From Escherichia coli O157:H7 (GTDB taxonomy: Bacteria; Pseudomonadota; Gammaproteobacteria; Enterobacterales; Enterobacteriaceae), in the NCBI RefSeq assembly GCF_013167455.1, contig NZ_CP038332.1: a DNA stretch of 64,000 nucleotides. One strand, 5' to 3'. Made by a program: the position numbers. This document shows, one piece after another, positions 50,501 through 53,500 of this stretch (position 1 is the stretch's first letter; the number at the start of each line of letters is the position of its first letter).

Positions 50501-53500
50501 GCATACGACCATAACGATCTCGCTGAAAATATGTGACGGTAACCGTTTTTCCTGCAACCAGTGATTTCATCATGTCTGTCGACCACCGGCCATAATCCTG
50601 TTTCTTTTCCGGCGCATCAATATTTACCAGCCTGATCCGCACCGCCTTCCGTGAGTCCATGACCTCGATGGTATCACCGTCCAGTACACGAACAACCCGT
50701 CCATGAATATCTGCACACAATACCGGCCATGAAAAGATAAATAATACCAGTGGAATATATTTCCTCATGTTATTCTCCGTATCAGATAAATAGCACCTGT
50801 ATTTCAGGCATCCTGAATATTGCAGCACACACTTAATAACACCTTATTTTGTGAAATTAATCACAAAATATAAAATCACGACTTAATACGGAAAAAACTC
50901 TGTGCTACTCAGAACTGGCCGGTCATACTGCCCGACCGGATATTAAAAAAAGCAAATCTCATGCATTATTCAGCCTTCTGAATCCCTGGAGTAATGAAGG
51001 CTGCTTTTTTCGTTACCCCCTTCCTCGGCAGCGCCGGTGGCAGTGTTCAGCCCTTTTTCGGGCAAACTGCTGCCAGTCAGTCCGGGGTGCAACACCGGCA
51101 GCCCGTCGCCATGCTTCTGCCGCTTCCATCCAGCGTCCACTGACTTCCAGAATAACGGCCCGGCTTCCGGCACGCTGGTAACGCCAGACCTGACCGTTCC
51201 GTGAACTGTTTCTGAATCCATTCATCTTTATCACTCCTCTTTAACCCGTCAGTATTATGGTGTTAAATAATCTACTGAATTGGCTTCCTTTCGGGTACGG
51301 AAGTTATTTCCTTTTAAGCCTTATTTCCCTGCCTCCTCTCTCTGAGGGAGGCTTTTTTTATTTCTCATCAAGCACGGCCTGAAGTTCTGCCTTTATCCGG
51401 TTCTGGCGGCGGATTTTATCCAGACGCGCTGCCGCATACGCTTCCTCCTCCTGAGAAATATGCTCCGTCACATACCCTTCCGTGTCATACCGGCAGGCAC
51501 CGGCTTTCATGGCACACAGATAGCTTTCTGAACGGGTGATGGCCTTCAGCGCCCTGCGCAGCTTTTTATGCGAGAGCGGGATATTCCGCTGCGCCACGTC
51601 TTCCAGTAACACGTCCCGGATACCGCAGGCCAGAAGCCGGGGCGTGTCACCGTCAAATAATCCCGGCCACCAGGGTTTCAGGGTGTTCACGGCCTCATCC
51701 TGCGTGGGCAGGTTCAGATAAATGGACAGCGCCTGTCTGGCCTGCGCTTTTTTTGCCGCCAGCTCCGCTTCCCGGGCTGCTTTCTCGGCCAGCTTCTGCT
51801 TTTTCACCTTCCATTTTGGTGGCGTGGTGACATTGATGATGGTTTTCCGGCTGCGGACAGGCGTCTCTCCTTCCGTTTTCCGCTTCAGTGTCAGTACCGG
51901 TCGTTTTTGCTCTGCCATGCTTACTCTGACCTTCGTGAAAATATGCCCTGCAGGCCGTTGAAACGGCTCATCGTAACAGGAAGTTAATTTCAACGACCTT
52001 TAACGTATAAATACTGACAATTAAAGATATTGTTTAAACCATTGTGTCTGCACAGCTACTACACGTTCAAAAAACGCGCCCTCATAAATATCATAATGGC
52101 ATGCATCAGCTTCCTCGTATAATTCCTTAGTACCAGAAGCAACAGCATCATATAATGCTCTTCCCTGTTCCGGTGGATTAACGCTATCCTGGCCGGCAAT
52201 AACAACCAAAACTGGGCACTGGACGCTGGCTGCACTCTCTGCCGGTTTATATTGCAACGTTTCCATGACCGTAAGGAAAGGTATTTTTATATCCATTTCG
52301 GGATGCCGGGCTTTGATTTTCTCGAAGAATACCTTCGATTCATCATCACTTAGTACCCGTGTAACCCCCACAAACATCTCTTTCCCGGTGTTTTTCTTCT
52401 TCTCTGCCATTTTATTCAGCGTGGATAGAAAAGACGCTCTCTCCGATTCATTCATCTCTCCGGTAACCAGAACATCACCGTCAGCAAAAGCCAGCTGGCT
52501 GACAATACATTTTACGCGTTGGTCCTGCGCAGCTGCACTGAAGACATGCCCCCCTCCCAGCGATGTTCCCCATAACCCAATACGCTGATTATCAATACAT
52601 TCCTGCTTTTCTGCCCAATTGATAACTGAAATAATATCTTCGGTCTGCATTGCAGGAACCAGACGCCCTCGTTCTCCATCACTCTCACCGAATCCTCGAT
52701 AATCAAAAGTAATCGTTGCGAATCCTGCTTCTGTGAAGGCATTCGCAAAGCAAGGGAGCAGAACATTCCTGATACCGCAAAACCCATGGCATAAGATAAT
52801 CAAAGGATGTTTTATATTTCCTTCAGGAACACGAAATGTCAGGGCAATACCTTCAGAGAGTTTGTGATCCGTAATTTTCATAAATATCCTGTGTTATGTT
52901 GTTTATTAATAAGCAGAATCAGCGTCAGTATCATACCAGTCACAACGCCAGAATGCCCAGCACAGCCAGATGACAGCCATAGAACGTCGGGAAAAAATCT
53001 CCGGGCCAGAAACGGGGTAATGATTTCCCTGCACAGGACACCAGACCAACGGTCAGCACCGTCATCACAAGACCAGCTACAGCCGCCGCATCACTGGAGG
53101 CAAGGTTAAGTGCCGGAATCACGGCCAGCAGGCATGCAACCAGCACCAGACGTTCCGTTCTGTCTTCCGCCCGGTACAGCCGGTGGCTGACTGCCAGCAT
53201 CAGCAGCCCGGCAATGCCGTAACTGGTGCCGGACAAAGGCCCCCACAGTGCCATCAGGAGAATGGCCGCTGCTGTACGCCACCCACTGCGCGTTTCACAC
53301 CACGTCAGCACCTGTGCCGCCACTGCAAAGGCAAACAGGATATTCCCCTCATACCACGGAAAGCCTGCCAGATAATACGCGAACTGGGCAATAATTCCCC
53401 ATCCCCACAGCCGGTTAATGGCCGACTGCCTGATATGCGCATGGCGGGACAGATTCAGCCCCCACACCAGAGCAAACAACGGAAAGGCTCCACGCCCGGC

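Follow-up and report, generated by a model that had tools for sequence, protein, structure and literature searches.

The DNA considered here is a 64,000-nucleotide stretch of the Escherichia coli O157:H7 contig NZ_CP038332.1 (the window), and the element in question lies in the short interval between finO, the gene of the RNA chaperone FinO, and a small gene of the ANR family, both on the minus strand. On the opposite, plus strand this interval carries two hairpins, HP1 and HP2, the second of which is followed by seven T. We think it rather probable that HP2 is a working Rho-independent terminator of a plus-strand RNA, one that insulates finO and the tra genes from convergent transcription. 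As judged by sequence comparison, the small gene has a clear identity and is under purifying selection, both hairpins are conserved and covarying, HP1 is specific to the plus strand, and the U-tract is on the plus side only. Termination in vivo at 51359, the place where transcription starts and any regulatory effect on ANR or finO are inferred. The features concerned are listed below (positions in the window).

51331-51359, plus strand: HP2, an intrinsic-terminator hairpin (51331-51352) with a U7 tract (51353-51359), from a scan, minimum free energy (MFE) and stem covariation
51277-51310, plus strand: HP1, a conserved hairpin with core stem 51281-88/51299-306 and loop UUUCGGGUAC, from RNAalifold, covariation and the pattern of G.U pairs
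51311-51330, plus strand: single-stranded spacer with the conserved core AAGCCUUAUU at 51316-51325 and variable flanks, from invariant columns in alignment A1
51241-51269, plus strand: candidate promoter, predicted only, with -35 TTAACC at 51241-46, a 17 bp spacer and TGn plus TAAATA at 51261-69
51358-51918, minus strand: finO, 186 amino acids (aa), with Pfam FinO_N and ProQ matches and NCBIfam NF010317 at 360.7 bits

The two hairpins beside the finO stop codon

Read on the plus strand, HP2 has the stem-loop GCCTCCTC-TCTCTGA-GGGAGGC, after which the T-run begins at once, and the finO stop codon TAA (51360-51358, minus strand) overlaps the last two T of that run. The scan described a 7-bp stem with five GC pairs and a loop of 8, and the MFE fold has 9 bp with a 1-nt bulge and a 3-nt loop; the MFE is -14.3 kcal/mol (z = -2.5). 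Among the plus-strand terminator-like sites of 44-58 kb, HP2 is listed second, after a 14-bp stem at 47495-47525. The 2-kb region holds seven terminator-like sites, against 1.7 +/- 1.4 in shuffles.

The comparison set comprised 137 related loci. HP2 is found at the finO stop codon in every one of them, and in 136 its T-run has 5-8 residues. Sixteen different stems occur, whose base GCCTCC/GGAGGC is nearly fixed and whose upper part varies with compensation (TC/GG, TT/AA, CC/GG, CCCGG/CCGGG and GC/GC). The divergent finO lineage (loci L014 and L015) has another stem, GCCCTCTG-TCATA-CAGAGGGC, and the (G/T)CTTTTATT that follows it (CUUUUAUU) is again U-rich. HP2 has been kept beside finO where unrelated DNA replaces the ANR side (the L025/L065 class), and together with finO where IS26 has removed that side (L011 and a large class of plasmids). 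The conservation of the hairpin in 137 loci, together with the compensatory stem variants, shows that it has not arisen by chance. As an observation in its own right, IS26-mediated deletions end just left of HP2, with loss of ANR and HP1 and retention of HP2 and finO; the same junction beside HP2 recurs in many E. coli, Klebsiella and Salmonella plasmids (L011 1151-1250).

On the minus strand, HP2 is preceded by an A-run and followed by AGGGAAAUAAGG, with no U-tract, and thus it has the geometry of a terminator only for plus-strand transcription. An earlier note on this DNA had described the hairpin and its seven T as oriented to terminate rightward transcription, and this is borne out by the one-sided U-tract and its conservation in the 137 loci. 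The note had further suggested a convergent terminator protecting finO. The exact end at the finO stop codon, the retention with finO in every context and the U-tract on the plus side only all fit that suggestion, while termination in vivo is our reading of these facts.

HP1 was predicted independently by RNAalifold from an alignment of 26 distinct variants. On the plus strand 96.2% of cells pair, against 67% at most in slid controls, and four pairs have changed on both sides, which none of 500 shuffles reached; examples are CTTCC/GGAAG versus CCTTCTTC/GAAGAAGG and CTTCT/AGAAG. The strand-informative cells divide into 73 in which the plus strand has G.U and the minus strand A.C, and nine of the reverse kind, counts that overstate the number of independent events since the sequences are related. 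In 15 of 16 distinct variants the plus-strand form of HP1 is the more stable one, by 0.7-7.8 kcal/mol, and the RNAalifold consensus energy is -11.0 kcal/mol for the plus strand versus -3.9 kcal/mol for the minus strand. Since the covariation and the G.U pattern fit the plus strand only, HP1 points to an RNA of that strand.

Between the two hairpins, nine of the ten positions of the spacer core AAGCCTTATT are invariant in alignment A1, lineage B included, a conservation that extends to the most diverged lineage. An analogous layout, consisting of an 8-bp hairpin, a spacer and then a terminator, is present in the distant L014 lineage. With a covariance model of the HP1-HP2 element, the window yields a single copy, on the plus strand at 51255-51364 (134 bits; next best 12.9 bits), and pSLT yields none. 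The relevant parts of pSLT (NC_003277.2 93349-93933 and 1-420) have unrelated sequence after finO and are without ANR, HP1 and HP2; therefore the RNA immunoprecipitation sequencing of Salmonella FinO (PMC8136791) is uninformative about the HP1-HP2 RNA. At the position of the hairpins, Rfam 15 gives only a weak, sub-threshold match to RF00519 (mmgR; 21.7 bits, gathering score 41, E = 0.17), which we treated as a generic resemblance to terminators and did not accept as an identity. A plus-strand open reading frame (ORF) of 41 aa at 51257-51382 was likewise rejected, as it extends across the terminator and has not been preserved in lineage B.

The start of the proposed plus-strand RNA and antisense transcription across the ANR gene

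Two further plus-strand features lie downstream of finO, at the 3' end of the ANR gene.

50932-51116, plus strand: Rfam RF02876, AS-pc02, antisense to the 3' end of the ANR gene (cmscan 205.2 bits versus gathering 40, full-length model)
50971-51010, plus strand: T1, hairpin CAGCCTTC/GAAGGCTG then CTTTTTT, lying within AS-pc02 just beyond the stop codon of ANR

AS-pc02 was reportedly found by RNA sequencing of pHK01, and its Rfam description reads 'antisense to pHK01_099'. The model ends at 51116, and HP1 and HP2 (51277-51359) are outside it. Its source is Jiang et al. 2017 (FEMS Microbiol Ecol 93:fix090), cited in PMC11980398. The earlier note had taken the hairpin to imply an unannotated plus-strand transcript. 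The transcript itself is indirectly supported by the AS-pc02 match and by the plus-only HP1, but the word unannotated is only partly right, because AS-pc02 already catalogues plus-strand transcription across the ANR gene.

T1 has a compensatory variant, CAGCCTCC/GGAGGCTG, in loci L010 and L108, where the T-run is kept and the hairpin is about 100 nt from the ANR stop codon. This arrangement suggests a short form of AS-pc02, about 79 nt long and ending at T1, that would not overlap the ANR coding sequence. As to where AS-pc02 begins, the only scan match upstream of it is the promoter-like TTGTGA-16-TAAAAT at 50849-50876 (plus strand). A promoter of its own at the invariant CATACT was considered and set aside for want of a convincing -35 upstream.

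For the HP1-HP2 RNA, the candidate promoter listed above offers a closer start. Its segment GTGnTaAATA (51260-69) is largely invariant in A1 and has the counterpart TGTTATAAA in lineage B. In both lineages 7 nt separate the end of the candidate -10 from the start of HP1, with TTAACC or TTAATC 17 bp upstream of the -10. The RNA of about 83 nt that would start from it has an MFE of -24.8 kcal/mol (z = -2.2). Judging by these sequences, the plus-strand RNA would be either a separate small RNA of about 83 nt from the TGn-TAAATA promoter, or the 3' end of longer antisense transcripts that start near AS-pc02.

The sequence of events that we propose is as follows. ANR would be translated from its strong Shine-Dalgarno sequence, probably on a transcript shared with finO. 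HP2 with its seven T would end transcription of the plus strand, that is, transcription directed against tra, and would form the 3' module of a conserved RNA composed of HP1, the 20-nt spacer with its AAGCCUUAUU core, HP2 and U7. Were the RNA made from its own promoter, it would start about 7 nt downstream of TGn-TAAATA and measure about 83 nt. Alternatively, transcripts from near AS-pc02 that escape T1 might cross the whole ANR gene and halt at HP2. By either route, plus-strand transcription would stop exactly at the finO stop codon; the RNA would therefore be complementary to the intercistronic RNA between finO and ANR, without invading finO.

Apart from the relatedness of the sequences mentioned above, several points weigh against this proposal. 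Most antisense transcripts from upstream may already end at T1 and thus never arrive at HP2. A consensus scan for sigma-70 sites over 51117-51330 returned none above threshold; the candidate promoter falls below it, and its -10, TAAATA, is without T at position 6. The L014/L015 lineage shows no promoter in that register. The G.U asymmetry of HP2 is not decisive, as nine variants are more stable on the plus strand, five on the minus strand and two equally on both. Finally, for the window sequence taken alone, the minus strand folds about as well as the plus strand (-24.1 versus -24.8 kcal/mol). That alternative minus-strand fold was examined as a conserved structure and rejected, its helices being devoid of covariation and broken by natural variants.

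Alternative readings and comparison with known systems

A more ambitious version of the proposal, which we regard as possible but doubtful, is that HP1, spacer, HP2 and U7 (51277-51359, plus strand) together form an independent gene for a regulatory small RNA, about 83 nt in length and convergent with the gene of an RNA chaperone. Such an RNA might, through pairing with the finO-ANR intercistronic RNA or through its AAGCCUUAUU core, control the ANR anti-activator, the 3' end of finO mRNA, or both, possibly as a client of FinO, ProQ or Hfq. Conceivably, it would uncouple ANR from finO by way of RNase III processing, help to shape the 3' end of finO, or act in trans via its spacer core. There are parallels in FinP/traJ, CopA/CopT and RepX/repA. 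Like these, the HP1-HP2 RNA would be about 80 nt long, consist of a 5' stem-loop and a terminator stem-loop with a U tail, and lie opposite a plasmid mRNA (PMC8136791 for FinP and RepX). It also shares with RNAs of the FinP/CopA kind a conserved, strand-specific structure with covariation. It differs from them in that its spacer is 20 nt instead of about 4 nt and in that it covers neither the Shine-Dalgarno sequence nor the start codon of the opposite gene. An Rfam scan of 50000-52500 gave no FinP or CopA match at E <= 10. AS-pc02 resembles it as another plus-strand RNA of this plasmid family that is antisense to the ANR gene (full-length match, 205 bits), but it covers the 3' end of ANR at 50932-51116, and the RNA at 51277-51359 is separate from that model.

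Somewhat less probable, and in our view unlikely, is a minus-strand role of HP2 in stabilising or processing the 3' end of finO/tra mRNA, the A-run being incidental or part of the signal and no plus-strand RNA ending there. The stability of finO mRNA is reported to set the level of fertility inhibition. The hairpin begins 5 nt after the finO stop codon and accompanies finO wherever the context was compared. Its minus-strand fold is just as good (-14.6 kcal/mol, z = -3.25), and a top-of-stem variant in 26 sequences pairs as U.G only there. This explanation, however, accounts neither for the T-run of 5-8 in 136 of the 137 loci, with its U-rich equivalent in the divergent lineage, nor for the plus-only pairing of neighbouring HP1; moreover, with no U-tract downstream, the hairpin alone cannot create a 3' end.

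We give still less credence to the idea that HP1 modulates the translation of ANR as a minus-strand structure, situated in the 5' untranslated region of ANR or in the mRNA between finO and ANR, and has nothing to do with HP2. The element does sit between finO and the ANR Shine-Dalgarno sequence, and its 5-bp core CUUCC/GGAAG can form on the minus strand too. Only about 74% of cells pair on that strand, however, against 96% on the plus strand. Independent C-to-T changes in the 5' arm (loci L051, L010, L005 and L083) keep a U.G pair on the plus strand and break the pair on the minus strand as A.C, and the RNAalifold prediction for the minus strand does not contain HP1. Finally, it is very improbable that HP1 and HP2 are hairpins of single-stranded plus-strand DNA, such as a priming or protein-binding site: the plus strand has what we take, by F-plasmid convention, to be the polarity of the transferred strand, the G.T asymmetry favours it for DNA as for RNA, and the DNA fold has z = -2.8, but a GC-rich stem directly before seven T is the hallmark of an intrinsic terminator, DNA parameters predict a different, non-covarying structure in place of HP1, G.T pairs contribute little stability in DNA, nothing similar to known ssi or Frpo elements was seen, and pO157 itself cannot be mobilized.

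Our preferred reading, a terminator that insulates finO, places HP2 beside the convergent Rho-independent terminators. It resembles them in its GC-rich stem of 7-10 bp, its short loop and the U-tract of 5-8 directly after, and differs from the usual ones in being unidirectional, with no minus U-tract. It faces antisense transcription only, because all neighbouring genes run the other way. HP2 is an ordinary kind of element in an unusual convergent position; neither the ORF nor AS-pc02 is new. Rfam 15 has no entry for the HP1-HP2 plus-strand RNA, nor do the papers searched mention it, and a literature search for pO157 transcript maps, AS-finO and finO terminators returned nothing usable. It is probably a new addition to the class of plasmid antisense and small RNAs.

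In the Enterobacteriaceae, a large part of the resistance and virulence load is borne by IncF plasmids. The present addition to plasmid antisense-RNA biology is incremental, useful to specialists in plasmid RNA, and introduces no new principle or kind of system. If our reading is true, a conserved RNA of the plus strand with its end at the stop codon of finO would add a regulatory layer at the tra-distal end. It could insulate finO and tra against antisense transcription, or act as an antisense regulator of a protein of a family reported to antagonise AraC-type activators and H-NS. Should the RNA prove to be an independent small RNA, fertility inhibition would be linked to the manipulation of host regulators on thousands of IncF plasmids.

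The ANR gene and its neighbourhood

The remaining features are the small gene, its ribosome-binding site and two genes of the neighbourhood.

51013-51225, minus strand: yigA, coding sequence of the 70-aa ANR-family small regulator (ORF, NF033650, PGAP WP_001302189.1)
51234-51239, minus strand: Shine-Dalgarno sequence GAGGAG, 8 nt before the ATG, read from the sequence
50307-50768, minus strand: SNase-type nuclease gene
52021-52881, minus strand: alpha/beta hydrolase gene, 286 aa

The small ORF runs from ATG at 51225 to the stop codon TAA at 51015-51013. PGAP calls the identical 213-nt coding sequence, and one GenBank record names it yigA. A GTG at 51234 was rejected as the start, because it overlaps the Shine-Dalgarno sequence. 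The latter forms a duplex of -8.6 kcal/mol with the 16S rRNA 3' end and ranks fourth among 42 annotated pO157 coding sequences, which bears out the claim of the earlier note that this ORF has one of the best ribosome-binding sites. The note had spoken of a 70-aa ORF, and did not recognise it as the known ANR/yigA gene.

With NCBIfam NF033650 (ANR family transcriptional regulator), whose cutoff is 32 bits, the protein scores 37.3 bits (E = 1.8e-9), and all 12 diverged homologues match this model as well (best E = 9e-11). A Pfam search gave no match, and a sequence search of the PDB returned designed helical proteins only, none of them a true relative. Out of 121 loci (plasmids, genomes and metagenomes) that could be evaluated for the reading frame, 113 have it intact. 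The ratio of nonsynonymous to synonymous substitution rates (dN/dS) between lineages is 0.15-0.6, with dS up to 1.2, and these sequence data show purifying selection on the gene. The AlphaFold2 model has three helices (4-29, 32-45 and 49-68) and a mean pLDDT of 85.9.

ANR proteins are reported to bind and antagonise AraC/XylS activators, H-NS or both, and often to be activated by the partner. Members of the family are smaller than 10 kDa with three predicted alpha-helices and carry the signature A10, E14, A22, W26, A29, W43 and R47 (PMC4983702). In a hand alignment, which requires a loop shorter by two residues, six of these seven are exact in the small protein (A23, E27, A35, W39, A42 and R58), and the position of W43 is taken by an invariant F54. 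The six counterparts, and C62, which matches a consensus C, are all invariant in alignment A2. The small ORF is therefore, on the strength of its NF033650 match, the PGAP call, the intact frame, dN/dS, the three-helix model and the signature residues, a real and already known ANR-family (yigA) gene, common on thousands of F-type plasmids. It resembles Aar of enteroaggregative E. coli, Cnr of enterotoxigenic E. coli and Rnr of Citrobacter rodentium in its size below 10 kDa, three-helix model, hidden Markov model score above cutoff and six of seven signature residues. It differs in its setting, beside finO, nuc and hha on F-type plasmids and not beside a cognate AraC/XylS activator. The ANR paper (PMC4983702) has no mention of finO, IncF or conjugative plasmids, and describes neither a partner nor a role for the gene on F-type plasmids.

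A scan found no minus-strand terminator between finO and ANR, and it is thus plausible that the two are co-transcribed. The candidate minus-strand promoter for ANR (CATAAT, 51259-51254) was discarded, being conserved neither in L007 nor in lineage B. The between-lineage dS of ANR, 0.5-1.2, is far above what FinO proteins of 95-99% identity suggest, and the ANR variants look mosaic; recombination in the finO-ANR segment is therefore likely, as far as these comparisons go.

In the plasmid context this mini-regulator has barely been studied, and it is missing or mis-framed in some deposited annotations, including that of pO157 Sakai. It is unannotated in AB011549.2 and called in the wrong frame in LC744468.1. 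In a Salmonella plasmid it is frameshifted within a C-run, and in eight of the 121 loci it is truncated. The places concerned include L003 at about 1700-1900 and L010 at 754-963.

By sequence, the window is pO157-like: the segment 50830-51400 is 100% identical to 70035-70605 of AB011549.2 (pO157 of E. coli O157:H7 Sakai) and has matches in 4,838 PLSDB plasmid records. The plus strand of the window is the minus strand of AB011549.2, in which the putative RNA would run from 70158 to 70076. Every gene around the small ORF is on the minus strand, in the order traX, hydrolase, finO, small ORF, nuclease, hha and then the RepFIIA replicon. The intact F-like plasmid pEG356 has the canonical order traI-traX-hydrolase-finO-ANR-nuc-hha, all co-directional.

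Some minor observations concern these neighbours. Upstream of finO, the 286-aa ORF classically called 'orf286' (52021-52881, minus strand) scores 511 bits, with a cutoff of 400, for NCBIfam NF047920 (UilS-family quorum-quenching N-acyl-homoserine lactonase). No other terminator-like hairpin in 44-58 kb is as strong as that at 47495-47525 (plus strand) near the RepFIIA replicon, which has 10 GC pairs in its 14-bp stem and is followed by CCGTTTTT. Above the Rfam gathering score there are also the CopA replication-control antisense RNA at 48964-49052 (plus strand) and an ALIL frameshift pseudoknot of an IS3-family element at 41675-41791 (minus strand). Between the 3' end of ANR and nuc, a perfect CRP-type palindrome, TGTGA-N6-TCACA (50850-50865), overlaps the promoter-like TTGTGA-16-TAAAAT of the plus strand, and its region (50847-50876) is nearly invariant in more than 100 related plasmids.

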